A stretch of DNA of 32,000 nt from Candidatus Saccharimonadota bacterium. GTDB taxonomy: Archaea; Nanohalarchaeota; Nanosalinia; Nanosalinales; Nanosalinaceae. The notes under the pieces were generated by a model that saw only the letters and a program-made list of their open reading frames with translations, searched no databases and was not told the origin of the DNA. Within the stretch, counting starts at the first letter, position 1, and each line of letters starts with the position of its first letter. The position numbers and the translations under genes are program-made. The stretch is taken from contig CP012986.1 in the NCBI GenBank assembly GCA_001761425.1, positions 930,001 to 962,000 of the forward strand, read 5' to 3'. Below, in pieces: positions 1 through 24,396 of the stretch.

Positions 1-127
1 CGGTTTCCACCATCCTGTCGCCATAATTGATTACTTCATACTCTTCGCCAGATTTTTCTGTCGCTTTTTCGAGTACTGTTGATTTTCCGACTCCTGAAAG
101 GCCTACAACTATATTTACGCTACTCAT
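1..127 (-). CDS. adkA: archaeal-type adenylate kinase, first 42 codons only (gene continues past the left edge)
   Basis: Hand translation of the minus strand from the ATG at 127 gives MSSVNIVVGLSGVGKSTVLEKATEKSGEEYEVINYGDRMVET. It has a P-loop GxxGxGKST and an INYGD block like archaeal AdkA. The start overlaps the cca stop (ATGAGTAG), which suggests cca and adkA are co-transcribed. Confidence 0.6.
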   Translation of the reverse strand, partial: MSSVNIVVGLSGVGKSTVLEKATEKSGEEYEVINYGDRMVET

Positions 128-1481
128 TTTCCTTCACTTTCAGCTTCTCCGCCAAGTATTTTAACCATTCCTCGTCGTCAGGAACAGCCTCCGTGAACCG
201 GAACTCGACTATCTTCTTCGCCACATGATCCGGTATACCCTTCTTCTCCAGTTCCTCGACTTCTCCTGAAAGAAAATCGTTCAGAAAGGCCTTCGCTTCC
301 GTGTAGTCTCTGTCGATTTTAGCCCAGATCCTTTCATCTTCTATGAAAGTGTTCTCGTACTTCTCTGTAAACTGTTCGAGGTGTTCGACGCCGTGAAAGA
401 CTTTCGGACCTTTCTGCTTCCGGACTTCGGGAAGGGAGGCCTCAAGTTCGAGGAGGATGCGGGTTTTCTCCTCTCCGACGTGGAAACCGGTCTCGAAAAT
501 CCTGAACTGTTTTTCTTCCAGTACGTTTTCCAGGCGGCGAAGAGTTTTCCTCATCTGTGGATAGATCACGTCCTCTACCGCTTCAGGCCTCTCAAACTCC
601 ATAACCAGGAAGTCCGCTCTCCTGTCGATCTCCTGTTTTACCTCGAACTGGCTGATCTCTCTTTCCTCTTCCTGGAAGAATTTCATGCTAGGATCTCTGT
701 TGAACTGCCAGAACCTGTGGATAACCCTGGAATAGTTCTGCGCACTCATCACCGAGGCGACATTCCTCTCCGGATCCACAGGATCGATGACCACAAAGCT
801 TTCATCCGAAAACTTCTCTTTCAAGGCCTGAGGAAGGCCTCCCCCATGATGATTTTCAGGGTCTATTACCTCGTTTTCCCTCCAGTTCTCCGCTTCTTCC
901 GCCAGTTCCTTGAAGCCTCCGAAGTGTGCGATCAGTATCTCACACAGGTAACCGGAGAAGGCCTGTACTTTGAGTGATGAGCCGTAGAGGCCTCCCGAGT
1001 CGAGGAACTTCTTCAGTATGACTGCGTCTTTTTTCTGTCTCTGGTTAAGGTTTTCTGAGGCCCATTTCGAGTGGTGTGGTGTTCTGTCGACCGCTGATTT
1101 GATGTTTTCGGGGCTTACTTTGTAGCAGGGGACGATTTCGACTTCGTGACCGTTTATTTGGCCTTTTGTGTATGGATGCTCTGCGTATTCGACCTGGTAT
1201 TCGCCGTCAAAGTTTTCAAAGGCTTTTTTTCCGACTGTGAGGCCTTGCTGTTCTATTGTTTTTCTTTCAGTATCTCTGGGAAAGAGTACGAAAAGATCAA
1301 TGTCTTTGTCGCCTGACATGCATGTACCTCGGCCTGTGCTTCCTGCGAAATGTGTTTCAAGGCCGTACTCTCCTTCTATAAACGCTGAGATTTTCTCGTA
1401 TACGCTTCTGGCATCGCGGAGTTCTTTCTGCTCCGGGTAAACCTGTTCTATGATTTTTTCACGGACTCTTTCCCATTCCAT
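120..1481 (-). CDS. cca: CCA-adding enzyme (class I archaeal tRNA nucleotidyltransferase)
   Basis: 453-aa ORF with the Pol-beta NTase signature GSTGRGTCMSGDKDIDLFVLF near the N-terminus. Length and architecture are typical of archaeal Cca. Confidence 0.9.
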   Translation of the reverse strand: MEWERVREKIIEQVYPEQKELRDARSVYEKISAFIEGEYGLETHFAGSTGRGTCMSGDKDIDLFVLFPRDTERKTIEQQGLTVGKKAFENFDGEYQVEYAEHPYTKGQINGHEVEIVPCYKVSPENIKSAVDRTPHHSKWASENLNQRQKKDAVILKKFLDSGGLYGSSLKVQAFSGYLCEILIAHFGGFKELAEEAENWRENEVIDPENHHGGGLPQALKEKFSDESFVVIDPVDPERNVASVMSAQNYSRVIHRFWQFNRDPSMKFFQEEEREISQFEVKQEIDRRADFLVMEFERPEAVEDVIYPQMRKTLRRLENVLEEKQFRIFETGFHVGEEKTRILLELEASLPEVRKQKGPKVFHGVEHLEQFTEKYENTFIEDERIWAKIDRDYTEAKAFLNDFLSGEVEELEKKGIPDHVAKKIVEFRFTEAVPDDEEWLKYLAEKLKVKENE

Positions 1482-3857: not shown

Positions 3858-3878
3858 GCCTAGGTGCTACTCAAAATT

Positions 3879-4964
3879 ATGACAGAAGATACTCCACAGA
3901 ATATTCCAAGACGCCAGATCGATGACTATGACGTTCCTGACGAATGGAAGGACGACGAAGAAGATAAGGAAGAAGTTCCAGAGGGAGAAGAGCCTGAAGA
4001 AGATGTAGAAGGAGAAGGCTACGAAGTCGTACAGGAAGAAGCAGAGGAAGGAGACACAGTACTGACATGTCCAGAATGTGGTTCTCAGCGCTTCGAAGAA
4101 GACTCAGCTAAAGGAGAACTGGTCTGTATCGAATGTGGAATGGTAATTGACGAAGACAGAATCGACGAATCCGCGGAGTGGAGAGCATTCAACGCAGAGG
4201 AAAAAGAAAAGAAAGCAAGAGCCGGACAGCCACTAACTTATACTAAACACGACATGGGAGTCTCCACAGAGATCGGAAAAGGATCAGGAGAACTCTACAA
4301 AGTCAGCGGAAACAAACGTGCCCAGTACTACAGACTCAGAAAATGGCATAAAAGACTGACCAAGTCAAAGGACCGCAACCTAGGATTCGCACTCAGCGAA
4401 CTAAACTCCATGATCTCCAACCTCAACCTGCCTGAATCAGTCCACGAAGAAGTCGCAAGACTTTACGAAAAAGCAGTGGACCAAGGCCTTGTCCGCGGGA
4501 GAAGCATGGAATCCATCATCTCGGCCATAATATATATTGTAGCCAGAAAACAGGGAACACCGAGAACCCTGGACGAAATCTCTGAAGCATCAGGCATCGA
4601 AAAAAGAGAGATCGGACGCGCATACAGATACGTAGCAAGAGAACTAGGCCTCAGAATCCTACCTGCGAAGCCACAGGACTACGTTCCACGTTTCGCCGGA
4701 AAACTACAGCTAAGCGGAACAGTACAGGCCCGCGCAAGAAACATCCTCAAAGAAGCACGCGAACGAGACCTCCTCTCAGGAAAAGGCCCTACAGGCCTCG
4801 CAGCAGCAGCACTCTACATCGCAGCAGTACTTGAAGGCGAAAAAAGAACACAGAGAGAAGTAGCCGACGTAGTCGGAGTCACAGAAGTAACAATCAGGAA
4901 CCGCTACAAAGAGCTTGCGGAGAAGCTAGGCCTCGAAGAGGAACTAGAAGAAAAATCCAGCTAG
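3879..4964 (+). CDS. tfb: transcription initiation factor TFB with an acidic N-terminal extension of about 60 aa
   Basis: It has a zinc ribbon (CPECGSQRFEE...CIECG), a B-reader/linker and two cyclin repeats (RGRSMESIISAIIYIVAR, GKGPTGLAAAALYIAA). The ATG at 3879 is preferred over the GTG at 3864 given by the ORF track. Confidence 0.9.
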   Translation: MTEDTPQNIPRRQIDDYDVPDEWKDDEEDKEEVPEGEEPEEDVEGEGYEVVQEEAEEGDTVLTCPECGSQRFEEDSAKGELVCIECGMVIDEDRIDESAEWRAFNAEEKEKKARAGQPLTYTKHDMGVSTEIGKGSGELYKVSGNKRAQYYRLRKWHKRLTKSKDRNLGFALSELNSMISNLNLPESVHEEVARLYEKAVDQGLVRGRSMESIISAIIYIVARKQGTPRTLDEISEASGIEKREIGRAYRYVARELGLRILPAKPQDYVPRFAGKLQLSGTVQARARNILKEARERDLLSGKGPTGLAAAALYIAAVLEGEKRTQREVADVVGVTEVTIRNRYKELAEKLGLEEELEEKSS

Positions 4965-4969
4965 TAGTT

Positions 4970-7159
4970 ATGTCATACGACGAAAATATATTCCAAGATG
5001 AAGAGTCCTATGAGAACTTTATCTTGGAATCCTTCCGTCAATTTATTCAAAAAACTCATGGTGGAAAAGATGGCTTTATTCGAGAAGCATCAGAGAACGG
5101 TGTAAACTACAATAAATCTTCAAGATATAGTGAGATCATAGAGAAAATAAGAAATAATGAAGATAGCAAGAAAGAAAAAATTCTGAAAGGGAAAACTGGC
5201 ATTCTAGAAGCGGTTGAATACTATAGCTTATATAAGTTTCAGGTAAGAGGGATAAGAAAAATAGACGAAAATGTAGTTAAAGAGTTTAATTCTTCTCTTA
5301 AAGATACAAAAAATAGCAAAGACAGTAAAAAATCTGCCATAGAACTATGTGAGTCATTAACTAGTAAGAATTTTTCGGAAAGATGGCGCAAATATTGGCT
5401 AAAACAAAATAGGAAACTGCCTCCAGTAATGCTTTTTCAAAATACAGTAATAGGTCCTTTGGGACCGATTCTCAAAAGAGATAAGGAACCTAAAAGATAT
5501 TCGGACTCCAGCCACATCTCACATGGCTATGAAATGGAATATATGACCACCTTAGACCTTTTGATGCTACCTCAAAATTACAGAAAGGCAAGACATAGCA
5601 ATTATCCCTTCAACTTACAAAAGACAGAATTTGTCAAACTTCTTTCCTCCATTTTGTCCTCATGCCGGAATAATATTAACTCATTTGAGGGAACTTATCA
5701 AAAATACATAGAGGACAAGGAAGACCAACTAACTTCTAAAATAGGTCAAATAAAGTCTAGATTAAGTAAAGAAGGTGCAAAATGCTCTGATAAACTGAGT
5801 AATGGCGAAATACCTCTTATCTATGCAGAGATTTCGCAGCTATCAGAAATTTTTCTAGAGAAAGACGAAGTTATTAAGGAGCTTAACGGATTAATTGGAG
5901 ATAATACACTAGTTGTGAGTGAAAGCACTACCCTTAACTTAGGATGGCGAGGCCCCGAATTTAAGGTAACTGAGGAAGGGATAATCGAAAGCAGTAGAGG
6001 TAGCTCGGCATTTAATCTTGCTCAAGATGTAAGCGACCTCAGCGATAAAGAGGCAGCCAGCCACTTAATAGAAATATCTGACAAGGGACTGATAAAATAT
6101 GTAGACGAGTTATCTAAGAAAGAATTTGAAACTTATAGAGAGTTGTTAGAGAAAAACAATCTAAACTACGAAGAAAGGCACCAAATGATAGCAGAGAAAA
6201 CTCAAAAGAGGCTTCTTGAGTCATATGGGATAAATTTACCGATAAGAGACTCAATGAGATTTAGAAACGATTTAGTATTGTTCTTCAAAAATTTAGAAGA
6301 ATTTGAAGAAAACTACAATAACTATGGAAGAAACTTAACTTCTAAAATCACTAACTTATTACGAGACACGAGAGTGAACTCCGAAAGATTCCTAAAAGAA
6401 CTTTTTACTTTAGAAACACTGCTAATAGAGCATATGAGAAAAAGAGAAGATCCATTTCAACAAAAAAATCCGTTATTAACACCTACCTTTGAAGAGAGAT
6501 TAGGCTTTAGCTACACGCCAGGTCGCGTGGGTAATTCCGAAAGAGGCGTAAAATTTTGCAAGAAATGCGTAAGACATCACCTGAACGAACTGAGACCCTA
6601 TATAACGGAAGAACTGGAATTGAAAATAGAGAAGTTTCTAGACACTTCTGAAGCGAGTTTTAGTTTAGGAGACTGGAGAAGCCTAGCGAAGGCCAATGAG
6701 GAACTTATTGAGGATCAAAATCTTAAATTACATGAATCACTTCCAGAAAGATTCTCAAATAGTTTGGAGGAAACAAAAGAAGAGTTTGAAAGATTCATGG
6801 AAAAAAACCATAGCTTGCTAAACACTGCAAGCCATGAAGGAGCTAAGAGAAAGTTTAGAAACAACAGTTCTTTGAGAGATGAATCTATCGGCTTATTAAA
6901 GGGAACAAAACAGGAGTTTAAGAAATTCTTCAGCTTCCTTCCGGGACCATATAGAATAGTTACAGAAAAAGAAGAAATAGATTCTGGATTGACTTCTTAC
7001 GGCGTAGAAAAAATAGGTCTGGACGGCGAGATAATTGAAGATTCAATCTATGGAGTTAACATAAGGGATAAGAAAAAAAGCTACTTCATACTGCCTAGAG
7101 GAAGAAAACATCTAGTTGAACCCATAATAGTTAGAGACGTCGCTGACGAGATTTTCTGA
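4970..7159 (+). CDS. hypothetical 729-aa protein, K/N/S-rich and near charge-neutral, compositionally foreign
   Basis: A long uninterrupted ORF starts 5 nt after the tfb stop. I recognised no catalytic motif. GC is much lower than in the flanks and it contains no AGGCCT copies. Confidence 0.6.
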   Translation: MSYDENIFQDEESYENFILESFRQFIQKTHGGKDGFIREASENGVNYNKSSRYSEIIEKIRNNEDSKKEKILKGKTGILEAVEYYSLYKFQVRGIRKIDENVVKEFNSSLKDTKNSKDSKKSAIELCESLTSKNFSERWRKYWLKQNRKLPPVMLFQNTVIGPLGPILKRDKEPKRYSDSSHISHGYEMEYMTTLDLLMLPQNYRKARHSNYPFNLQKTEFVKLLSSILSSCRNNINSFEGTYQKYIEDKEDQLTSKIGQIKSRLSKEGAKCSDKLSNGEIPLIYAEISQLSEIFLEKDEVIKELNGLIGDNTLVVSESTTLNLGWRGPEFKVTEEGIIESSRGSSAFNLAQDVSDLSDKEAASHLIEISDKGLIKYVDELSKKEFETYRELLEKNNLNYEERHQMIAEKTQKRLLESYGINLPIRDSMRFRNDLVLFFKNLEEFEENYNNYGRNLTSKITNLLRDTRVNSERFLKELFTLETLLIEHMRKREDPFQQKNPLLTPTFEERLGFSYTPGRVGNSERGVKFCKKCVRHHLNELRPYITEELELKIEKFLDTSEASFSLGDWRSLAKANEELIEDQNLKLHESLPERFSNSLEETKEEFERFMEKNHSLLNTASHEGAKRKFRNNSSLRDESIGLLKGTKQEFKKFFSFLPGPYRIVTEKEEIDSGLTSYGVEKIGLDGEIIEDSIYGVNIRDKKKSYFILPRGRKHLVEPIIVRDVADEIF

Positions 7160-7608: not shown

Positions 7609-8706
7609 CTAGGCCTTGAGATCCCTGATCACATCTTTAAGATCCTGGATCGGTGCATCCGTTTTAACGCCGGTAGGACTGAAATGCGTTCTCTCCACAG
7701 GATAACCTTTCTCCCGCAGAGCCTGTATAAATTCCTCCCTCCTCGGAGAGGAAGTGCCTATATTAGAGGCCAGCGCGTGTATATCGTAGTAAGGAGTTAT
7801 AATCTCCGCTTCCGCATCCAGTTTTTCCAGGAATTCGTAGGCCTCCCATTCCTCCGGCATATCCTCCAGCATATCAGAGGTAAACCTCTGATCGACGAAC
7901 TTTCCAGTCCATAGAGGCCCTGCTTCCTGCGTCTCTTCCCCGCATTCCGGGCAGTTTTTTACACGCTCGAACTTTCTCCACAGACAGTTCCCACAGTAGG
8001 AAAGGTATCCTACGTTTTCCAAGGCCTTGTTCGTCCTTTTCTTCGATTCTGTGACCCTGCCCATGACCCTGGTATAATGCCTTTCATGGAAACAGACTTT
8101 CGGATCAAAGCATTTATCGAAACGAGCGAAGTTCCGGAAAACCTCTTTCAGATAAATTCTGAGGCCTATCTCATGCATGAAATCATTTTTTATCGGCTTT
8201 GAGCCATACCTGCGTTCACAGACTGTCGGATAAGAGCCTGCTGGCGCAGCATTATCAGTGGATGTAAGGCCTACAAAACTTGTATGGTTAGCAGCTCTTG
8301 CTGTAGAATCAAGGAATTTTGTGAAAGATCCAAACGGATCAACATCTATAAAATGGAAGTAATTCCCGAATTCTGACAGAAAGACATTCGCATCCTCCTC
8401 GTGAACTGTTGCCTCAATACCGTTTTCATCAAGGCCTTTCCCAATTGCCTCTACCGCTTCTGGATTCACATCGTTTAAATGAAGATCTGTCGCGTATTCT
8501 CCGTATCTGAATCCTCTGATCCCTGAGGCTGCCAGTGCGTCTGCCACACGGAACTCTTCTTCAAGGCCTGCTCTTTCCCTGAACACTTTTACAGCTATCT
8601 GGGAGATATCACGGTTGTTAAGCATCTTTTCATTGAAAAATACTTCCGAGTCCTTGTCCGGCTCTTCCTCCTCGGGCGCGAAAACTTCCAGGCCTCTTTC
8701 TTCCAT
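7609..8706 (-). CDS. trm1: tRNA (guanine26-N2)-dimethyltransferase
   Basis: It has the FFNEKMLNNRDIS block, a SAM-methyltransferase core and the Cys cluster CGNCLW...CPECG typical of archaeal Trm1. The ATG at 8706 is chosen because a TATA-like element lies about 29 nt upstream. The ORF-track start at 8820 adds 38 unconserved-looking residues. Confidence 0.85.
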   Translation of the reverse strand: MEERGLEVFAPEEEEPDKDSEVFFNEKMLNNRDISQIAVKVFRERAGLEEEFRVADALAASGIRGFRYGEYATDLHLNDVNPEAVEAIGKGLDENGIEATVHEEDANVFLSEFGNYFHFIDVDPFGSFTKFLDSTARAANHTSFVGLTSTDNAAPAGSYPTVCERRYGSKPIKNDFMHEIGLRIYLKEVFRNFARFDKCFDPKVCFHERHYTRVMGRVTESKKRTNKALENVGYLSYCGNCLWRKFERVKNCPECGEETQEAGPLWTGKFVDQRFTSDMLEDMPEEWEAYEFLEKLDAEAEIITPYYDIHALASNIGTSSPRREEFIQALREKGYPVERTHFSPTGVKTDAPIQDLKDVIRDLKA

Positions 8707-8731
8707 GAACAAACTGGTTCCAGTCAAACTT

Positions 8732-8739
8732 CTTATAAC
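8732..8739 (-). promoter_or_regulatory. TATA-like box for trm1
   Basis: GTTATAAG on the minus strand is centred about 29 nt upstream of the ATG at 8706. Confidence 0.35.
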
Positions 8740-8800
8740 AGGAAGCCCGTAAGACTCAAAACTTTTATAAAGAAGTCCGGGTGAAGGCCTCTGCATTTGG

Positions 8801-8808
8801 TTTATAAA
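8801..8808 (+). promoter_or_regulatory. candidate TATA box of the atp operon
   Basis: TTTATAAA lies about 40 nt upstream of the atpH TTG start. GGTGA at 8833-8837 could act as a Shine-Dalgarno sequence. Confidence 0.35.
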
Positions 8809-8844
8809 CCTTACAACCACGAGTGCTAATACGGTGAATTTATC

Positions 8845-16681: not shown

Positions 16682-17317
16682 ATGGCACAGGACGTTAAAC
16701 CTACAAGGTCTGAAGAACTTCGTTTGAAGGAGCGTATCGAGCTTGCGGAGAACGGTCATGAGATCCTTGAGAAAAAGCGTGATGGTTTGATTCACGAATT
16801 CATGGAGATCATAGACGATGCAAAGGAGGTCAACCAGGAACTTGCTGATCTTTACTCCCAGGCCCAGCTCAAGATGATGCTCGGAAAGGTCTATGACGGA
16901 GAGGATACAGTGAAAGCGAACGCTATGGCTGTTGAACAGGAGATCGAGATCTCTCTTGAAGCACAGAACATTATGGGAGTCAAGGTCCCGGAGATCGAAT
17001 CAGAGAACAAGATACAGAGAAAGATACTCGACAGAGAATACGGAACTACATCCACATCCTCCAGGATAGACTCCACAGCAGACAAATACGAGGAACTTCT
17101 GGAACAGATCGTTGACGCAGCCGAGACCCAGACAAAAATCCTCAAACTCCTGGATGAGATAGAAAAAACCAAGAGAAGAGTAAACGCATTAGAACACAAG
17201 ACAATCCCGGAAATGAAAGACGCACAGAGCCAGGTCTCACAGGTCCTCCAGGAACGGGCAAGAGAAGAAACCTTCCGGATGAAAAAAATCAAAGAAATGC
17301 AGGAAGAAAACGAATAA
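16682..17317 (+). CDS. atpD: A-type ATP synthase subunit D
   Basis: 211 aa. The N-terminus KPTRSEELRLKERIELAENGHEILEKKRDGLIHEF is typical of AtpD. Confidence 0.9.
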   Translation: MAQDVKPTRSEELRLKERIELAENGHEILEKKRDGLIHEFMEIIDDAKEVNQELADLYSQAQLKMMLGKVYDGEDTVKANAMAVEQEIEISLEAQNIMGVKVPEIESENKIQRKILDREYGTTSTSSRIDSTADKYEELLEQIVDAAETQTKILKLLDEIEKTKRRVNALEHKTIPEMKDAQSQVSQVLQERAREETFRMKKIKEMQEENE

Positions 17318-17443: not shown

Positions 17444-17881
17444 TCAAGGCCTTAAAGGGTTATAACCTGTGTCTATGCCCAGGAAACTGTTGAAATGCCG
17501 TGAAACGTATTTTTCTATCTCTTCCTCGAGTTCAGGGTTTTCTACCTGGAATGAGGCCTTTATTCTGCCTGAGCCTTCTCCCGGGAGATGGCTTTCATAA
17601 CGGATTTTTCCGCTTACACCTTCTGTTTCTAGCTCCATATCTGCTAGGGCTACATCGATGTCTCCAGCATATGCCATTTCCCTGAACTTGTCAAAATCAA
17701 GTCTTCCGTTTGTCTCTCCTGCGACGTAGAAGTTTTCATCTATCTCGGGGTCTTCAACTGTATCTCTGAAATCCTGATCGTACTCTCTGAAGTTTTCGTA
17801 GATCTCGTGAGGATGCCAGTCGTTGCTTAGAAAGAGAAATTCAGGCCTTCTTGGGGCTTTGTAGCCTTTAAATTCTGTCAT
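17444..17881 (-). CDS. hypothetical acidic protein, 145 aa
   Basis: The ORF starts 9 nt downstream of the nucleotidyltransferase gene on the same strand. I recognised no motif. Confidence 0.5.
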   Translation of the reverse strand: MTEFKGYKAPRRPEFLFLSNDWHPHEIYENFREYDQDFRDTVEDPEIDENFYVAGETNGRLDFDKFREMAYAGDIDVALADMELETEGVSGKIRYESHLPGEGSGRIKASFQVENPELEEEIEKYVSRHFNSFLGIDTGYNPLRP

Positions 17882-17890
17882 TTTTCAGGC

Positions 17891-19147
17891 CTATTTTTTG
17901 TCCTGTTCCTGTTCTTCTTCCTGTTTCTCTACTTCTTTTTCAGCCTTTTTTTCCAGGTTGGGTACCGCCTCCTCTGGATCTGCGGCTTTGGCTATGGAGG
18001 ATGGGTCCATGTCTGGTGTCATGTCTTCGGCTTCTTCCTGTTTCTGTTTCTGGATGTCTTTGCCGACGTCTGAGACGAATTCCTTGGTCTCGTTTTTGAG
18101 TTCGTAGACTTCTTTTTCGTCTACGTCGTCCATTTCCTTGTTTTTGACTTTTTCAATTACATCTTCCCAGCGGTCGAACATCTGGACGTGTTCTTCTCCG
18201 ACATCGAGGTTTTCCGCAACTACCCCTGGGAGGTCGTCCTTGTCTTCTGGAGGTTCTACGCCCTGGCTCTTGAGTGCTGCTACGTTGGCCTTGAGGAATT
18301 TTTTGTAGTCGTCTACTATACCTTTGACTTTTTTCCTTGAACCTAGCTGGCTGACCAGTTTGTGCATCCTTCTGACGAAGTCGTCCGTCATCTGCATGTG
18401 ATCTTCTACGGCCTCTCCTGTAACCTTTTCCGGATCTTTCTCTCCCAGATCTCCGAAGTCGTAGATCTTCCGGGCCTTCTCAATGTATTCTTCTTCCAGC
18501 ATTTCCTTTTCCACAAACATCTCTTCAAGAACATCTGAAACATTCTCCTTGGCAGGAGGCTTTTTACCTGCGAGCATGATCGGTGCCTGTCCAGCGTTAG
18601 CCATCGCCTGCTCCAGCTTATGGGGGATAGAGGAACGGAAATTTTTCTCAGCCTTTTTGTAGCCTGCTGCACCCATCTTCAAACGCTTCTTGACGGATTC
18701 CTGTGTCCCTGTGATCTTTCCTCTCTCGAGAAGTCTCTTCGCAGGCATAAAAATACCTGTATCGTAGACAGGCTCCCCGTTTCTCACCGCTTCGATAGCG
18801 AGAGGCTCTCCTTTCCTCAGAGAGTCCCAGAACTCAGTTAAGAAGGGAAAGTACTGGATGGTAATTCTATCATCAGTCTCCTTTGCGAGATCTGTGACTT
18901 TCTTCCTGATCTTGTTCTTCGCCTCATCAGGAACGTCTTTCCGAAGTTTAGTATCATCTAAAATTACAAGCGTATCGATATCTGAGTCATGTCCATGCTC
19001 TCCTTTCGCAACGCTGCCCCAGACGGCTACAACTTTCACTTTATCCTCTAATTTATCCTTCAACTTGTCCGCAAACTCATTAGCAGACTCCATTCTGCGC
19101 TCCTGGGACTTTTTCCTCATCTCTTTCATCTTATCTTTAGAACTCAT
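17891..19147 (-). CDS. Pol-beta superfamily nucleotidyltransferase with a long helical C-terminal region and KE-rich tail
   Basis: VVAVWGSVAKGEHGHDSDIDTLVILDD is a minimal-NTase signature (GS...DxD). The ATG at 19147 is preferred over the TTG at 19162. Confidence 0.7.
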   Translation of the reverse strand: MSSKDKMKEMRKKSQERRMESANEFADKLKDKLEDKVKVVAVWGSVAKGEHGHDSDIDTLVILDDTKLRKDVPDEAKNKIRKKVTDLAKETDDRITIQYFPFLTEFWDSLRKGEPLAIEAVRNGEPVYDTGIFMPAKRLLERGKITGTQESVKKRLKMGAAGYKKAEKNFRSSIPHKLEQAMANAGQAPIMLAGKKPPAKENVSDVLEEMFVEKEMLEEEYIEKARKIYDFGDLGEKDPEKVTGEAVEDHMQMTDDFVRRMHKLVSQLGSRKKVKGIVDDYKKFLKANVAALKSQGVEPPEDKDDLPGVVAENLDVGEEHVQMFDRWEDVIEKVKNKEMDDVDEKEVYELKNETKEFVSDVGKDIQKQKQEEAEDMTPDMDPSSIAKAADPEEAVPNLEKKAEKEVEKQEEEQEQDKK

Positions 19148-19218
19148 GGAGAGATCACACAAACCGTTGAAACTCTCAAACTTATAAAACTTTAAAGATC
19201 TTTTGTCACTGAAAAGTC

Positions 19219-19953
19219 ATGATAGAAGGCCTTCTCTCCCCTCCTCACGCCAGAAACCACGAAGACTATGACAGGGAGATCAATCTATCGAGTGCTGAGG
19301 CCTGGATCAGAGATGAGGTCGATGGTTTTGACAGTGCTGTCCTGATGGGTGTCCCAGGCTCCGAGAAAGATATGTTTGTACAATCTGTTGAAGAATTATT
19401 AACTGATGAGGCCTTCCACGGTGCTGATATCTACGCTCATGATCCTATCGGAGAAGAGCTTGATTACTTTGATACGGAAAGTATAGAGTACGACAGGAAG
19501 CCCAGCAGAATATCTGATATAGAATGGATCAGCGAAAATATCTCTGAAGACGATGACATCGCTGTCTTTTCCTTCGACTACAATATCAGGACAGGAAAGG
19601 AGTTAGACCGTAGACTGGAAGATCATGAGACCTTCGGACAGTTCCCTCTACAGTTCGATGATTTCAATGATTTAACAGTTTCTAACTACTTGAAAGGCCT
19701 TGTGCCTGGTTTCGAAAGCTTTGAAGATGAGGTTGATGACCAGGAGAAATCTTTCAGTTATACTGTTCCGGAGACAGGAAGTTCCAATGCTGTGGTTCTT
19801 AGCGTTCCTTTCAGCGACAGTTTCAGCGGTTACAGTGGAAAGATGCGGAGTGAAACTCTTCGGTACGGCCTTGCTGTGCTTCCGTACGGTCAGAAGATGA
19901 AGGATATAGGTAAGAAAGGCCTTGATAGGGTTATGGATGGTTTCGAGTACTGA
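19219..19953 (+). CDS. hypothetical acidic protein, 244 aa
   Basis: Clean ORF with an AT-rich TATA-like upstream region (19182-19197) and a T7 run directly after the stop. Confidence 0.5.
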   Translation: MIEGLLSPPHARNHEDYDREINLSSAEAWIRDEVDGFDSAVLMGVPGSEKDMFVQSVEELLTDEAFHGADIYAHDPIGEELDYFDTESIEYDRKPSRISDIEWISENISEDDDIAVFSFDYNIRTGKELDRRLEDHETFGQFPLQFDDFNDLTVSNYLKGLVPGFESFEDEVDDQEKSFSYTVPETGSSNAVVLSVPFSDSFSGYSGKMRSETLRYGLAVLPYGQKMKDIGKKGLDRVMDGFEY

Positions 19954-19960
19954 TTTTTTT
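19954..19960 (+). terminator. T7 run immediately after the stop of the 244-aa gene
   Basis: TGA followed by TTTTTTT. Archaeal termination typically uses oligo-T tracts. Confidence 0.4.
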
Positions 19961-22685
19961 ACTGGTATTCTTCGCTTTTCCATTCGTTTGGTCTGTTTCC
20001 GCCCTGTTCTATGGCTCCGCTTCCACTCCATGTGAAGTCAAAGCCTTCTGCCTGAAGTAGTCCGTCAAGAGGATCGAATGCATGTTCCTCGATCTTGGAC
20101 CATTCTCTGTTGAAGTTAGGCCTGTCCATGCGGAAGAAACGTGCCATAAGTGCTTCTTTCTCGTTTTCGTACTGGGAGTCCGGATCAACCTTGCTTGGGT
20201 CAAGTTCATCTGGTTCTACGCCTAGTTCGATCAGGTCCATGGCTATCTGGGCCATATAGACTGTTCCTGTCTGTTCTCCGCCGACCTCGTACATTACATA
20301 GGCCTCTTCTCCCGGGTTTTTCCCGAATCCTGCATCCACCATTTTATACAGCCATTCGTAGAGTTCTACGTCTCCTCTACGGAACGGTCCGTGGGTATGA
20401 CCTGTTCCCTGGCTGGTCTCCCATCCTGGCTTGGTCAGGTGGTACATTCTGACAATATAGGCAAGAGGATTATCTTCATCCACTTTAACATCGTAGTCTT
20501 TTCCTGCCAGCCATTTTTCCTGTTCGATAAGTAATTCCATCTCTTCCCATGGTTCGACTCCGAATCCTGCGACGTGTTCCATATCTATGGTGAACTTGGC
20601 GACAGCACCATCCAGGGCCTCATGTATCTCATCAAGCTCGTTTCTCGCTGTGATATTTACGGCTCTACAGGCTGCTACCATGTCTTTAGGCCTCCAGAGT
20701 TTGAACATTTCGTTAGGCCCTCCCGCCATCGCTTCCATGTTGACTCCTATCCCGTACTTGTTCATCCATTCGATCCAGGTATAGTTGCCTTCGTCTGGGT
20801 CAACGTAACTGTTTCCTTCGATCCTGAAATCATCCTGTATCTGGGTGAAATGACTCCAGAAGTAGACGCTGGCTGAAGCAGCTGCGACATCCATCCTGAA
20901 CTCCCTGTTTTCCTCCAGCAGGTCAAGGAACTTCGGATCCTCGCCTTCCTCAGCTCTGGGATCAGTCAGATCAAGATCGTAGTCATCACCCCATTTTCTC
21001 TCGACTACAGTCTCCCAGAGGAACTTGGCAGCCGGAAAACCATCATGGCCTTCCTCATCCTCATCTGCAACCGCCATCCAGGCCGGCATAATCCTGTAAA
21101 AGATGTTGGACTCCATCCATATCTGCTGTTCAAAGTTAGCCGAGAAAAGGTTGCGCAGAAGTTCACCGTGCTTATCAAGCTCCATCTCCTCTTCAGGCCC
21201 TTCCTTCTCAAAGTACTCAGGCACACCCATCAGAACTCTCTCAGCATGAGTCTCGATATCCTCATCCAGATCCTCTGACTCTAACTCATAAGCCAGCTCC
21301 TGGATCTTCATCTGCTGAACGTCAAAGTGACTGCTCAAGGCCTGAATCTTGGCATCAATCGAAATCGGCTCTTCACCGTTCCCTTCCCAGAGCTTATCCA
21401 TTAACTGTCCAAGTTTCTCCTGTATCTTTTCCACAGCATCCTCATAGACCCCCTGCTCTTCAGGTATCTCCTCAAGACCTTCTTTGATGTCCTGCTGGAG
21501 GCCTGGATTCTGCTCTGCCGTTTGAACGACATTCTGTGTTGCCTCTACTTCCAGTGCCACTCTCTCAATACCCTGTAACATTCTTGGAATCAGCTGTGCA
21601 ATCTGGACCTCATCTGGATCAAGGCCTACCTGGCTGGCAGCGTTTTTCCTCAGATTGTAGAGTAGGCCTGCCATCTGACGAATAGAGACTATACCCCTTT
21701 CCCCTCCGATAACATCAGAAATCTGTTTTTCCTTCGTTTTCTGGGTCACATCTGCCTTTAACTCGTCATTCTGATCCAGGTCAAACTCTATCTCCACTAC
21801 AGGTACTTCAAAATCTCCGTACTCATCTACTATCCTGTACCATTCTGTTTCGATACCTCTGTCGCTCTGGCCCGCTGTCGTGATAACGGAGATCTTTGCT
21901 TCAAGAGACTCTATCAAGTTGTCTACTTCGTCGGCTTCTGGATCTGTTTTCCAGCGGTAGTATTCGTTTGTAGCGGATCTTCGAGCCTGTTCCCATTTAT
22001 CTTCGAATTTTTTGGAGTAACGTGAGAAAAGGTTGTAGTACTGGAAGTCATAATCCACTTCTTCCAGTAGGAACGTGTAGTATATCCTTCTGAGGAACTC
22101 CTTGTTCTGAAAGATGTTTTGACCTCTCTCCGATCTTCTCCTGTTAACTTCTTCTGAAAGCTCTGTTATTTTGAAGCCGAAAGGATCAAGGCTGACATCG
22201 TCCGCCATCCTCTCGTGAAGCGGAGGTATGTTATCCGTCGAGATATGCGGATTGATACGGCCAGACTTGAAACTGATATCATCCCTGTTATCGACCTCTT
22301 CCTTGAAAGAAGCATAGTTCTGGAGATATTTTCTGAAATAATCCTGGGTGATATCGAAACCTCTACCCCTACCAGTCTTATAGGAAGAAGTGTAACCGAT
22401 GTTAGGATCACTGTGGAAGGATACATCCAGTCCAAGGCCTTCCACTGTACTTATCAGATCCTGTCTGTCGATGAAAAAAGTGGAGGGGTTCTCAAGCTTG
22501 ATCTCCATCACTCCGCCTCCTCTCTGAGCTAGCTGGCCAACCCTCTGGGCGATCTCAGAAGGTATATCTCCTGTCACGTCCATGCCTGAAGTGTTCCCGA
22601 CCTCGTAGTTGAACTGTTTAAGATCAAGGCCTTCTTCACCGCCGAAATCAAAGTTCTCTTTCAGTTTGTCGATCAGGAAACTCAT
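19959..22685 (-). CDS. endonuclease IV / xylose-isomerase-like TIM-barrel metalloprotein split by an insertion of about 470 aa
   Basis: 908 aa. By-eye signature blocks are FHSD (H91), INPH (H147), GVNMEAMAGG (E651), IDMEH (D701, H704), MYHLTK (H749), GHTHG (H763, H765) and VMYEVGG (E800). Their order and spacing match the AP-endonuclease-2 fold, apart from a gap of about 500 residues. Confidence 0.6.
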   Translation of the reverse strand: MSFLIDKLKENFDFGGEEGLDLKQFNYEVGNTSGMDVTGDIPSEIAQRVGQLAQRGGGVMEIKLENPSTFFIDRQDLISTVEGLGLDVSFHSDPNIGYTSSYKTGRGRGFDITQDYFRKYLQNYASFKEEVDNRDDISFKSGRINPHISTDNIPPLHERMADDVSLDPFGFKITELSEEVNRRRSERGQNIFQNKEFLRRIYYTFLLEEVDYDFQYYNLFSRYSKKFEDKWEQARRSATNEYYRWKTDPEADEVDNLIESLEAKISVITTAGQSDRGIETEWYRIVDEYGDFEVPVVEIEFDLDQNDELKADVTQKTKEKQISDVIGGERGIVSIRQMAGLLYNLRKNAASQVGLDPDEVQIAQLIPRMLQGIERVALEVEATQNVVQTAEQNPGLQQDIKEGLEEIPEEQGVYEDAVEKIQEKLGQLMDKLWEGNGEEPISIDAKIQALSSHFDVQQMKIQELAYELESEDLDEDIETHAERVLMGVPEYFEKEGPEEEMELDKHGELLRNLFSANFEQQIWMESNIFYRIMPAWMAVADEDEEGHDGFPAAKFLWETVVERKWGDDYDLDLTDPRAEEGEDPKFLDLLEENREFRMDVAAASASVYFWSHFTQIQDDFRIEGNSYVDPDEGNYTWIEWMNKYGIGVNMEAMAGGPNEMFKLWRPKDMVAACRAVNITARNELDEIHEALDGAVAKFTIDMEHVAGFGVEPWEEMELLIEQEKWLAGKDYDVKVDEDNPLAYIVRMYHLTKPGWETSQGTGHTHGPFRRGDVELYEWLYKMVDAGFGKNPGEEAYVMYEVGGEQTGTVYMAQIAMDLIELGVEPDELDPSKVDPDSQYENEKEALMARFFRMDRPNFNREWSKIEEHAFDPLDGLLQAEGFDFTWSGSGAIEQGGNRPNEWKSEEYQ

Positions 22686-22697
22686 CTATTTTTCACC

Positions 22698-24329
22698 CTA
22701 GTTCATTGTATAGAGGCCGAAGCCCAGCTTGAAGTTCCAGTAATAGTTGAACCACATGTCATGGGTCAGATCGCCTAGAGGATCAGTACCAGGCGGTATC
22801 ACGAATGGATCAGTCTGCCCGGTAAATTTCCTCAGCTTTTTCTCGAAGCCACCGTACATATCCTCTCCCTTGTCATTGTCCTCATGCAGCGAGGTCTCAA
22901 GGACCTCATCAAGGCCTTTGATATAATCCTCCTGGAGTATATCTACAGGGTCAAGGCCGTCCTCGATTCTTCTTATCTTGGAGGAGGTTTCCAGAGGAAT
23001 ATCTTCATCAAGTTCCTTGCTCAAGGCCTCACGGAGTTTTCTGACCGACATATCCTCGTCTTTTCTTGCTTCTTTGAGTTCTTCCCCGTACTCTGTCTCG
23101 AAGTCTCCAGTGTAGTCTTTCATCAGTTCATCTGTCTGATCCTGGTACTTCTCGATCTTGGCCTTGAAAAAGTTCTCAAAGACGTGTTTGCAGACGATCG
23201 CCGGATGCCACATCACGACGCCGGATGAAGGGCCTTCTGCCGGGCTTTGAGGGTTACCTGGGCTTGCCATGTTGACGTGGACTCCGTGGATATAGATTAT
23301 CCTGTAGTGCGTGGCTTCGTCTTCACTGTCCGCTACGACTATATCGCCGTGTTCTTTCTTCAAAGGTTTGTAGCAGATGAACTCCAGGTTTCTTTCCATC
23401 GAAGAGTTTCCTTTCCACTCGTAGTAATTGGTGTAATCGCTCTGGAGGTCTCCCATCTTGTTTATCTGTACCATGTCCTTCACGTAAGGCTCCAGCCATT
23501 CTTTGGTCTCTCCTATTGATCTCTCGATACTCTTCAACTGTCCTTTGAGATCCTCCAGTTTCCTGTTGACTTCGGAGCCGTAGAGATCCTTCCATTTCTC
23601 GTACATCGAGTACTTCTTTTTCAGGATAGCTTTCTCGTTGTTAGGCCTATCTGCCAGGACACCATCTTTGTCATCCTCTCTGTCCTCGGCTGGCTTCAGA
23701 TCATCCAGCGAATCCATCTCGTAGAAATCAGATACGATCGTCGGATAGATATTTCTCTCAACAAGAGTCTTCATTGCTGCCTCTCCGCCCTGCTGGGAAC
23801 CTGCGTTCGCTCCATCAACCAGTTCAACGAAGTCTCCTTTCAAAACTGCCTCATCTTTCTCACTCATGGCCTCAGCACGCGAACGGAGCTTCCTGATATC
23901 GTGTTCAAGCATATGCTTCTGCTTCATCAGCTCGGAGATGTTACGCATGTTCTCCTTGACCTTGGACTCCGCCTGCTGTTTTCTCTGCATAAACTCATCA
24001 TGAAGTTGACTTTGAGGAGCTACATAGATACCTTCCTCAGTTCTCTCCACACTATAGTCCTTATTCTCATCCAGGTTATCCGCAGCAGTAAGTACTACAG
24101 CAAAAGGCGTCCCTTGACTCGAGGCCGAGACCTTCAACTTCTTCCAGTTATCCCCCATAAGCGGTTTGAGAAAGTCATCTCCCAATTCCTCTCTAACCCC
24201 TCTGAGGCCTTGTATCTCACCCCTCCTGATCTTTTCCACGACATCTTTCCCTGGACTGCTCAAATCTCCGTCTGTCTCGAAGACGTGTCCGAACTTACAG
24301 GTTTCAGGGTGATCTCCGCCATGGCTCAT
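22698..24329 (-). CDS. hypothetical coiled-coil protein with an aromatic/hydrophobic C-terminal tail, 543 aa
   Basis: It is the upstream gene of the pair, 12 nt from the 908-aa gene. A heptad-like segment spans about residues 105-165. The C-terminus is DMWFNYYWNFKLGFGLYTMN. Confidence 0.55.
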   Translation of the reverse strand: MSHGGDHPETCKFGHVFETDGDLSSPGKDVVEKIRRGEIQGLRGVREELGDDFLKPLMGDNWKKLKVSASSQGTPFAVVLTAADNLDENKDYSVERTEEGIYVAPQSQLHDEFMQRKQQAESKVKENMRNISELMKQKHMLEHDIRKLRSRAEAMSEKDEAVLKGDFVELVDGANAGSQQGGEAAMKTLVERNIYPTIVSDFYEMDSLDDLKPAEDREDDKDGVLADRPNNEKAILKKKYSMYEKWKDLYGSEVNRKLEDLKGQLKSIERSIGETKEWLEPYVKDMVQINKMGDLQSDYTNYYEWKGNSSMERNLEFICYKPLKKEHGDIVVADSEDEATHYRIIYIHGVHVNMASPGNPQSPAEGPSSGVVMWHPAIVCKHVFENFFKAKIEKYQDQTDELMKDYTGDFETEYGEELKEARKDEDMSVRKLREALSKELDEDIPLETSSKIRRIEDGLDPVDILQEDYIKGLDEVLETSLHEDNDKGEDMYGGFEKKLRKFTGQTDPFVIPPGTDPLGDLTHDMWFNYYWNFKLGFGLYTMN

Positions 24330-24396
24330 ATAATTACAGTATTCGTTTTTCCACTACTTAAAATTCGAACATGTTTTCCATGACCAGTCGAAATAA

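Follow-up and report, generated by a model that had tools for sequence, protein, structure and literature searches.

What is made from two adjacent genes whose homologues carry the public annotation 'hypothetical protein', and in what process could their products act? The question is raised by positions 19959 to 24329 of the window, which is the whole stretch of 32,000 nucleotides of contig CP012986.1 that was analysed. The upstream gene, p543 (open reading frame (ORF) 22698-24329, minus strand), codes a 543-aa protein that is 100% identical to AQV86_05190 of Nanohaloarchaea archaeon SG9; the downstream gene, p908 (ORF 19959-22685, minus strand), codes a 908-aa protein. The original prediction had read in p908 the metal ligands of E. 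coli endonuclease IV (Endo IV, Nfo) on a triose-phosphate isomerase (TIM) barrel split by a long insertion, and it was exact in the coordinates and lengths of both ORFs and in the 12 nt that separate them. The analysis presented here places p908 in the AP_endonuc_2 superfamily, finds the insertion throughout its family and associates the two genes with a third one, coding the nucleotidyltransferase p423.

A first homologue search gave 77 full-length relatives of p908 with 40-100% identity, of which every named one is from Nanohaloarchaea. An exhaustive profile search of 1.84 billion representative proteins returned 112 relatives, including a second tier of proteins of 490-750 residues that match chiefly the C-terminal third of p908 and that, where named, belong to Aenigmarchaeota or to the basal Nanohaloarchaeota metagenome-assembled genome (MAG) QJJ-7. 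The named members of the p908 family come from Nanohaloarchaeota and Aenigmarchaeota only.

Sixty-eight diverse members of the family were aligned (alignment A3, 18% mean column identity). Thirty of the 68 match PF01261 (AP_endonuc_2, the xylose-isomerase-like TIM barrel) at E <= 0.05, with a best value of 8.6e-22; no other Pfam family recurs when the 68 members are scanned singly, and one Aenigmarchaeota member has a precomputed PF01261 match. Two relatives are named 'sugar phosphate isomerase/epimerase' in the JGI annotation. The membership of p908 in the superfamily is transitive, because p908 itself has no match and is linked to PF01261 via A3. The N-terminal region of several relatives covers PF01261 model positions ~8-89, and matches to the NCBIfam family CbiR span positions 2-128 or, in other members, 146-233; the two ends of p908 are therefore consecutive parts of one domain.

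An AlphaFold2 (AF2) model of p908 computed from the alignment (mean predicted local distance difference test (pLDDT) 84.9, predicted template modelling score (pTM) 0.80) displays the (beta/alpha)8 barrel of the PF01261 clan. Four beta-alpha units precede residue 150 (strands 27-32, 59-63, 87-91 and 141-144) and four follow residue 645 (strands 648-651, 696-701, 745-750 and 795-799), with conserved residues at the strand ends or just past them. Foldseek with this model retrieves only TIM barrels, L-ribulose and D-psicose 3-epimerases included, although the matches are weak (E >= 8.6e-3). Family profiles and predicted structure concur in making p908 a divergent member of the AP_endonuc_2/xylose-isomerase-like TIM-barrel superfamily. 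The expected TIM barrel is thus found, and its two halves are collinear with a single Endo IV domain. The polypeptide is organised as follows:

22236..22628 (minus strand): N-terminal half-barrel, residues ~20-150, strands 1-4, bearing H91 and H147; aligns to Endo IV residues ~22-109.
20841..22235 (minus strand): inserted domain, residues ~151-615, mostly helical, with two long hairpins (291-321).
20226..20840 (minus strand): C-terminal half-barrel, residues ~616-820, strands 5-8, bearing E651, D701, E703, H704, H749, H765 and E800.
19962..20225 (minus strand): C-terminal tail, residues 821-908, with the family motifs EHAxDPLxGLL (H868, P872) and terminal EEW-x-x-EE-[YLF].

The domain inserted between strands 4 and 5 is a defining feature of the whole family and is largest in p908. 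H147 and E651 are 504 residues apart in p908, 423-504 in Nanohaloarchaea and 166-504 in the family (median 277), compared to 36 for the equivalent residues of Nfo. The barrel is therefore split by a large insertion as had been proposed, but a minimum spacing of 166 residues makes this a property of the family and not an exception of p908. The predicted helical character is confirmed by the AF2 model, which builds the insertion from helices of at most ~23 residues plus beta-hairpins. The acidity also noticed at the outset is real in p908, whose insertion has a net charge of -60, but it is a halophile trait because the insertion of non-halophile relatives is near neutral (~0). The two ends of the insertion are conserved, with a D-P-x-G...W-F segment after strand 4 (D167-P168-F169-G170 in p908) and an A-x-x-Y-x-x-G-H helix before strand 5 that contains H612, while the middle is variable and expanded in Nanohaloarchaea. 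The C-terminal tail is modelled with low confidence, and for this reason it may fold only on, or bind, a partner or substrate.

The seven ligand-like blocks aligned by eye in the original prediction are all found at the residues given there: FHSD (H91), INPH (H147), NMEA (E651), IDMEH (D701, H704), MYHLTK (H749), GHTHG (H763, H765) and MYEVGG (E800). Its spacings are likewise right, with inter-block distances of 3/14/2/35 in p908 against 3/13/2/30 in Nfo, and so are the Nfo ligand numbers that it gave, since residues 69, 109, 145, 179, 182, 216, 229, 231 and 261 of E. coli K-12 Nfo are H, H, E, D, H, H, D, H and E. Both global and local hhalign alignments pair H91 with H69, H147 with H109, E651 with E145, D701 with D179, H704 with H182, H749 with H216, H765 with H231 and E800 with E261. 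On the barrel these candidate ligands are distributed as:

Strands 3 to 6: H91 on strand 3; H147 on strand 4; E651 on strand 5; D701 and H704 on strand 6.
Strands 7 and 8: H749 on strand 7; H765 in the loop between strand 7 and helix 7; E800 on strand 8.

These eight residues and E703 are invariant in an alignment of 62 Nanohaloarchaea sequences. H147, E651, D701 and E800 are the only invariant columns of the 68-sequence alignment, in which H91, E703, H704, H749 and H765 are kept at >=90%; all eight ligand residues occur together in 62 of the 68 diverse members, and H749 is found in 73 of 75 sequences. The probability that four invariant columns would all fall among nine pre-named positions of 908 is ~4.5e-9 (hypergeometric). 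The E-D-H-E metal core on strands 5-8 that is typical of the PF01261 clan is present, its residues E651, D701 and E800 being invariant. Eight of the nine proposed ligands are conserved among homologues; the ninth, H763, the counterpart of Nfo D229, is not: among the 62 Nanohaloarchaea sequences 31 have H at this position, 29 have T and two have S, and elsewhere it is variable and often different or absent. E703 may substitute for this variable ligand. p908 thus appears to keep the His/Glu/Asp set of the Endo IV trinuclear centre, from which a single metal site is predicted.

Two other histidines, H612 at the end of the insertion (nt ~20850) and H868 in the C-terminal tail (nt ~20082), are near-invariant although neither is at a canonical position of the barrel, and a contribution of both to the active site is possible. 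A different composition is seen in the Aenigmarchaeota member P0257 (L041 8001-9854), in which an N-terminal glutaredoxin domain is fused to the split barrel and in which D and M replace H749 and H765.

Within the superfamily the closest relatives of known structure appear to be Endo IV proteins and their homologues. The mixed-family profile A3 has its best match in the Protein Data Bank (PDB) to MJ1311 (3wqo, E = 2e-5), followed by AP endonuclease 6khy and Thermotoga Endo IV 2x7v; D-tagatose 3-epimerase comes lower. MJ1311 is listed as a predicted Endo IV homologue of M. jannaschii in Table 1 of Kiyonari et al. (PMC2770678); in its alignment with A3, which extends over the C-terminal half, the motifs E, D-x-x-H and H...H are paired. 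In contrast to p908, MJ1311 is a single-domain protein of 293 residues that lacks the insertion and the partner, and it is absent from the matches of the barrel-only profile A6. This profile of 282 positions was obtained by excising the insertion from 26 diverse members and re-aligning them. In the PDB it retrieves Endo IV first (2x7v 5.2e-5, 4hno 6.4e-5, 6khy 7e-5, 5zhz 8.5e-4) and, lower, APN1 (0.015) and E. coli Nfo (0.03-0.04); each alignment to Endo IV is single and runs collinear through the excision point. When the barrel profile is compared to E. coli sequences with hhalign, Nfo scores 36.1 (P = 1.6e-4), Hyi 27.9, SgbU 19.2 and XylA 15.9, while three unrelated TIM barrels score ~15 and 60 shuffles of Nfo give 13.8 +/- 2.2 with a maximum of 21.2.

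p908 thus shares with Endo IV (Nfo/Apn1; 1qtw, 2x7v, 4hno, 5zhz, 6khy) the superfamily, the strand-by-strand placement of the ligands and eight of nine ligand positions. The family motif H-x(10-17)-H-x(5)-G after strand 7 also resembles H216...D229-x-H231..LGEG of Nfo. The differences are substantial. The family departs from the compact single-domain architecture of Endo IV (~280-300 residues) by the 130-470-residue insertion between strands 4 and 5 and by a conserved C-terminal tail of ~100 residues; its D229-equivalent is variable and an extra invariant glutamate, E703, is present; and its similarity lies under every curated threshold. Unlike Endo IV genes, the p908 gene is paired with the gene of a helical partner, and its activity is a predicted one.

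The neighbourhood of the barrel gene was surveyed at 40 Nanohaloarchaea loci and at ten loci outside the main Nanohaloarchaea set. p543 is found directly upstream of p908, on the same strand, in 36/36 Nanohaloarchaea loci with upstream DNA, and the two genes are also syntenic in 8 of the 10 outside loci, so the pair is syntenic as proposed. It is not a two-gene unit, however, since the nucleotidyltransferase p423 is coded downstream of p908 in 37/37 Nanohaloarchaea loci with downstream DNA. Seven of the ten outside loci have all three genes inside ~6 kb, some with the nucleotidyltransferase duplicated or with one extra gene inserted; in L054 no barrel gene stands between those of p543 and the nucleotidyltransferase. 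The nucleotidyltransferase also follows the barrel gene in most Aenigmarchaeota loci. Trm1 and, behind it, TFIIB come directly after the trio in one Aenigmarchaeota genome and in QJJ-7 (L041 11361-13985; L051 8409-10812). In the window Trm1 (7609-8820, minus strand) and TFIIB (3864-4964, plus strand) are 9-14 kb from the trio, and the A-type ATPase operon (D-subunit gene 16682-17317) and small genes lie between, as if the ATPase operon had been inserted into an ancestral trio-Trm1-TFIIB arrangement. The order of the trio looks old and vertically inherited. The synteny, fixed between the ATPase D subunit and MoxR and continuing to Trm1 and TFIIB, argues for a core function.

Searches of the DPANN and Nanohaloarchaeota literature found no published description of this architecture or gene cluster, as the original prediction had supposed. 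The AP_endonuc_2 superfamily is well known; what is new is an insertion-bearing clade of it in an undescribed three-gene module of Nanohaloarchaeota and Aenigmarchaeota. The module and its non-coding signals in the window comprise, besides p908:

24330..24396 (minus strand): upstream intergenic region, common to p543 and a divergent 169-aa gene.
22698..24329 (minus strand): p543, with a small N-terminal region, an alpha/beta domain (~63-103) and long helices (108-156 and 230-300).
Further parts of p543: a beta-sheet domain (311-380), a weak Xre/MBF1-like helix-turn-helix (HTH; ~413-482) and an aromatic C-terminal tail.
22686..22697 (minus strand): p543-p908 spacer of 12 nt, GGTGAAAAATAG, containing a GGTGA Shine-Dalgarno-like (ribosome-binding-like) motif.
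17891..19162 (minus strand): p423, 423 aa, with intact G49-S50...D61-x-D63, a helical (HEPN/UPF0332-like) domain and an acidic tail.

The short spacer with its GGTGA motif suggests that the p543 and p908 genes are co-transcribed and that their translation is coupled. They abut or overlap in three relatives, L045, L050 and L051. The start codons of both genes are sound because the N-termini of the proteins are kept among homologues. Inspection of the upstream region reveals an A/T-rich TTTTAAG box ~30 nt ahead of the p543 ATG, a candidate archaeal promoter. The annotated TTG start of p423 is probably wrong, the true one being the ATG at 19147 that yields the conserved N-terminus MSSKDKMK.

p543 has 187 full-length homologues, and all the named ones found in the first search are from Nanohaloarchaea. 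Its conserved core (~60-300), which includes the family-invariant motif L141-x-H143-D144-x-R146-K147, reaches Aenigmarchaeota, where the homologues are coded upstream of the barrel gene. The AF2 model of p543 is of moderate confidence (pLDDT 74) and has two beta-containing domains and a helical C-terminal part; two long helices (108-156 and 230-300) are predicted in this protein, for which coiled-coil character had been claimed. No match to p543 was found in the PDB by sequence or fold, and Foldseek with its model returned noise only (E >= 0.27). The HTH_31/aMBF1 match at 413-482 is weak (HTH_31 E = 0.069), and some annotators name homologues accordingly. p543 is probably a stoichiometric partner that binds p908.

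p423 belongs to the MNT/KNTase type of nucleotidyltransferases (PF01909 E = 1.7e-10; profile match to kanamycin nucleotidyltransferase (KNTase) 8e-9), and its nearest solved relatives are KNTase and MntA-type proteins (5yep, 7ae2). It is conserved as well as ATP synthase subunit D and much more than its neighbours, with identities across Nanohaloarchaea loci of 71-91% compared to 35-69% for p908 and 46-80% for p543, and has an Aenigmarchaeota orthologue at E = 2e-40. Relatives are named 'nucleotidyltransferase/UPF0332' by JGI. A Pfam scan of p423 gave no HEPN match, and no polymerase domain was detected by Pfam or profile search. A HEPN RNase motif (R-x4-H) was considered and rejected, as the [RK]SSxPH string is found in Nanohaloarchaea only and is not conserved across the family; a role as CCA-adding enzyme was rejected too, as the window codes the canonical archaeal class I enzyme at 120-1481 (minus strand; NTP_transf_2, tRNA_NucTransf2 and CAA_C). 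At two loci outside Nanohaloarchaea (L046 7928-9923, L050 6840-8674) the nucleotidyltransferase occurs as tandem copies of 254-290 aa then 357-372 aa.

p423 fits the description of a DPANN-specific family, cls.004259 (NEQ050), in which an MNT domain is fused to HEPN, typically in a housekeeping context, and which was singled out as unusually conserved, enigmatic but important, and a priority target (Makarova, Wolf and Koonin 2019, PMC6393860). The likeness, by description only, lies in an MNT-type enzyme with a helical domain, unusual conservation and a DPANN housekeeping context. p543, alpha-helical and likewise placed in a DPANN housekeeping context, recalls, also by description only, the alpha-helical family cls.004340 (NEQ484). 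The available part of PMC6393860 mentions neither a TIM-barrel partner nor this gene cluster.

Which reaction these proteins carry out can be proposed with graded confidence. The tentatively preferred reading, held at slightly less than an even balance of belief and doubt, is that p908 is an Endo IV-like metal-dependent phosphodiesterase acting with p543, likely on nucleic-acid ends or lesions. p908 would be made with p543 from one operon, and probably bound to it; it would bind two or three metal ions and hydrolyse a phosphodiester, and the domain inserted between strands 4 and 5, perhaps with the C-terminal tail, would cap or gate the active site. p908 and p423 would act in the same process, in which cleavage of AP sites or removal of 3'-blocking groups would leave a 3'-OH that the nucleotidyltransferase could extend. 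In Nanohaloarchaeota and Aenigmarchaeota the process would belong to the housekeeping functions. A nucleic-acid substrate is favoured because Endo IV appears to be the nearest characterised family, because p543 has an HTH-like element and because the nucleotidyltransferase is basic (pI 9.1-9.7 for relatives of p423 in most non-halophiles), although confidence in such a substrate is only moderate.

Several observations weigh against the phosphodiesterase reading. p908 alone has no match in Pfam, NCBIfam or PDB sequences, and its Nanohaloarchaea-only profile finds nothing relevant in the PDB; all links to Endo IV run through family profiles, at E values of only 1e-5 to 1e-2. None of the 68 members reaches the cut-off of any NCBIfam family, and the nfo model is missing from the 25 NCBIfam families listed for them at E <= 0.05. 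Sugar epimerases and hydroxypyruvate isomerase are also among the weak matches, and D-tagatose 3-epimerase (E 0.011-0.15) is interleaved with Endo IV in the matches of A6. The complete trinuclear site claimed originally stands as an Endo IV-like set of eight positions, whose third metal site is not assured because the D229-equivalent position is variable. The barrel gene has neither partner nearby in two of the ten outside loci (L044, L049), and in SG9 the genes of p908 and the nucleotidyltransferase are separated by a convergent gene (19219-19953). In non-halophiles p543 and the barrel protein are near neutral, not basic.

A broader proposal takes the trio as an unrecognised machine of Nanohaloarchaeota and Aenigmarchaeota for nucleic-acid end processing or nucleotidyl-group removal, composed of a gated Endo IV-type barrel, a dedicated helical adaptor and an 'MNT-HEPN' nucleotidyltransferase; as a whole it is rather doubtful. 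A functional analogy may be drawn with bacterial PolX and its PHP domain, where a nucleotidyltransferase of the Pol-beta superfamily works alongside a phosphoesterase, a His-rich multi-metal barrel, by which 3' ends or AP sites are cleaned. The analogy is limited, as PHP is another barrel family, PolX is one fused polypeptide with fingers and thumb, and p423 is of the KNTase/MNT type.

The barrel could instead serve salvage, cleaving a phosphodiester of a scavenged metabolite, cofactor or lipid head-group, after which the nucleotidyltransferase would re-activate the phosphomonoester or hydroxyl so formed with a nucleoside monophosphate (NMP); this would suit host-dependent DPANN cells without biosynthetic pathways. 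The model here is CbiR (NF041277), experimentally shown to be a cobamide-remodelling phosphodiesterase of this superfamily whose substrate is not a nucleic acid (Mok et al. 2020, PMC7733943), and which is the best NCBIfam neighbour of the p908 family (nine of the 68 members, best E 5.2e-9). KNTase-type enzymes, among which are the solved proteins nearest to p423, act on hydroxyls of small molecules, and the glutaredoxin domain of the one Aenigmarchaeota member recalls the requirement of CbiR for reductant and anoxia (PMC7733943). Yet the members detailed score 15-25 bits in the CbiR model, far under its 105-bit cut-off. CbiR lacks the insertion and is found among bacterial cobamide genes, whereas the p908 family has a DPANN housekeeping context: the loci examined contain no cobamide operon, nor any cobamide or lipid gene except one PF01923 gene in L050. 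Once the insertion is removed, the first ranks go to solved Endo IV proteins, and the HTH-like segment of p543 and the basic nucleotidyltransferases of non-halophiles also speak for nucleic acids, so that salvage is unlikely. An isomerase or epimerase of sugars or keto-acids with a regulatory cap would correspond to the commonest function of the superfamily, to the JGI names of two relatives and to the weak matches to D-tagatose, D-psicose and L-ribulose-5-P 3-epimerases and to hydroxypyruvate isomerase. The E-D-H-E core (E651, D701, H749, E800) is common to sugar epimerases and isomerases and counts for this alternative. Four further near-invariant histidines (H91, H147, H704, H765) at Endo IV ligand positions count against it, as single-metal epimerases are not known to need them. 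In the hhalign comparison, moreover, Nfo beats SgbU, XylA and Hyi, and the housekeeping information-processing context, with an obligate helical partner and a nucleotidyltransferase, in organisms whose sugar metabolism is minimal, makes such an activity distinctly improbable.

A writer-eraser switch, in which p423 nucleotidylylates a protein, possibly p543, or a nucleic-acid end and the barrel removes the NMP, is a little more improbable again. MNT-type enzymes AMPylate proteins in MntA/HepT systems, two of which (5yep, 7ae2) are among the profile matches of p423; removal of an NMP from a hydroxyl is phosphodiester hydrolysis and would suit an Endo IV-type centre; and the three genes co-occur tightly. 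No modified-residue motif was identified, and genomes in which the barrel gene is alone or, as in L054, missing between the other two count against the switch. Lastly, the original prediction had compared the design to Rad50/SbcC and had considered defence. A catalytic domain split by a long insertion and a partner with two long helices fit a DNA-tethering machine, and Foldseek with p543 retrieves SMC coiled-coil fragments, only at E ~1. However, the short helices and hairpins of the insertion, in a model with pTM 0.80, do not indicate a long coiled-coil arm, and Pfam finds no ABC-ATPase or SMC domain in p908 or p543. Anti-phage defence is likewise at odds with PADLOC, which finds nothing for p908 or p543 and only generic nucleotidyltransferase models for p423, and with a core, vertically inherited cluster that keeps a single fixed position and is found in practically every member of the Nanohaloarchaea, when mobile defence islands are patchy. 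Both ideas are largely refuted and very improbable.

The surroundings of the module contain several further genes. Two acidic ORFs flank p423 in the window:

19219..19953 (plus strand): 244-aa acidic ORF between p908 and the nucleotidyltransferase gene, on the opposite strand to both, with no family match.
17444..17881 (minus strand): 145-aa acidic ORF on the other side of the nucleotidyltransferase.

Each has homologues only in L001, L002 and L035, the closest relatives; the two are lineage-specific additions to the cluster, and the 244-aa ORF is outside the conserved module. Divergent from p543, the segment 24397-27530 (plus strand) codes the 169-aa membrane-anchored coiled-coil protein, DUF7502, a MoxR AAA+ ATPase and a DUF58-like protein, the last two assigned by sequence inspection without a family scan; the block is syntenic in many Nanohaloarchaea loci. 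At loci outside Nanohaloarchaea (L045 2597-3946, L046 2402-3844 and L050 1884-2947, minus strand) the p543-like gene is preceded by genes of opposite orientation for two or three paralogous proteins of ~165-185 aa. These proteins have no Pfam match and are related across loci (BLASTP to 1e-52), but kinship with the 169-aa or DUF7502 genes of the window was rejected, as BLASTP detects no similarity. An enrichment of DNA-repair genes near the cluster was also considered and rejected: UDG, ligase, FEN1, NurA, Hjc and TopA each occur in single loci, by a rough estimate no more often than by chance in genomes of this small size. A complete nanohaloarchaeal cluster occurs under a MAG named Colwellia polaris (L026, JBLGBK010000006.1), probably through a binning or labelling error. 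Elsewhere in the window, a 729-aa ORF (4970-7159, plus strand) has no Pfam match and lies in a stretch with a G+C content of 0.35, against 0.44-0.51 in the rest, which may be foreign or fast-evolving DNA; a search of the window for RNA genes found none.

DPANN genomes are tiny, and each conserved gene without a functional annotation probably has a part either in some essential process or in symbiotic life. For one such family of 'hypothetical proteins' the analysis identifies the fold, points to multi-metal phosphodiester hydrolysis, as predicted from its ligands, as the probable chemistry, and indicates that an Endo IV-type barrel can tolerate a domain of 130-470 residues between two of its strands. 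Conserved synteny ties the family to the helical p543 and to a nucleotidyltransferase whose features agree with those described for a signature family of DPANN archaea. If the trio is indeed a machine for processing nucleic-acid ends, it would take the place of the canonical enzymes of repair or of RNA-end healing in these reduced genomes, and should its substrate prove to be ends of damaged DNA or RNA, it would reveal how such reduced organisms maintain their nucleic acids.

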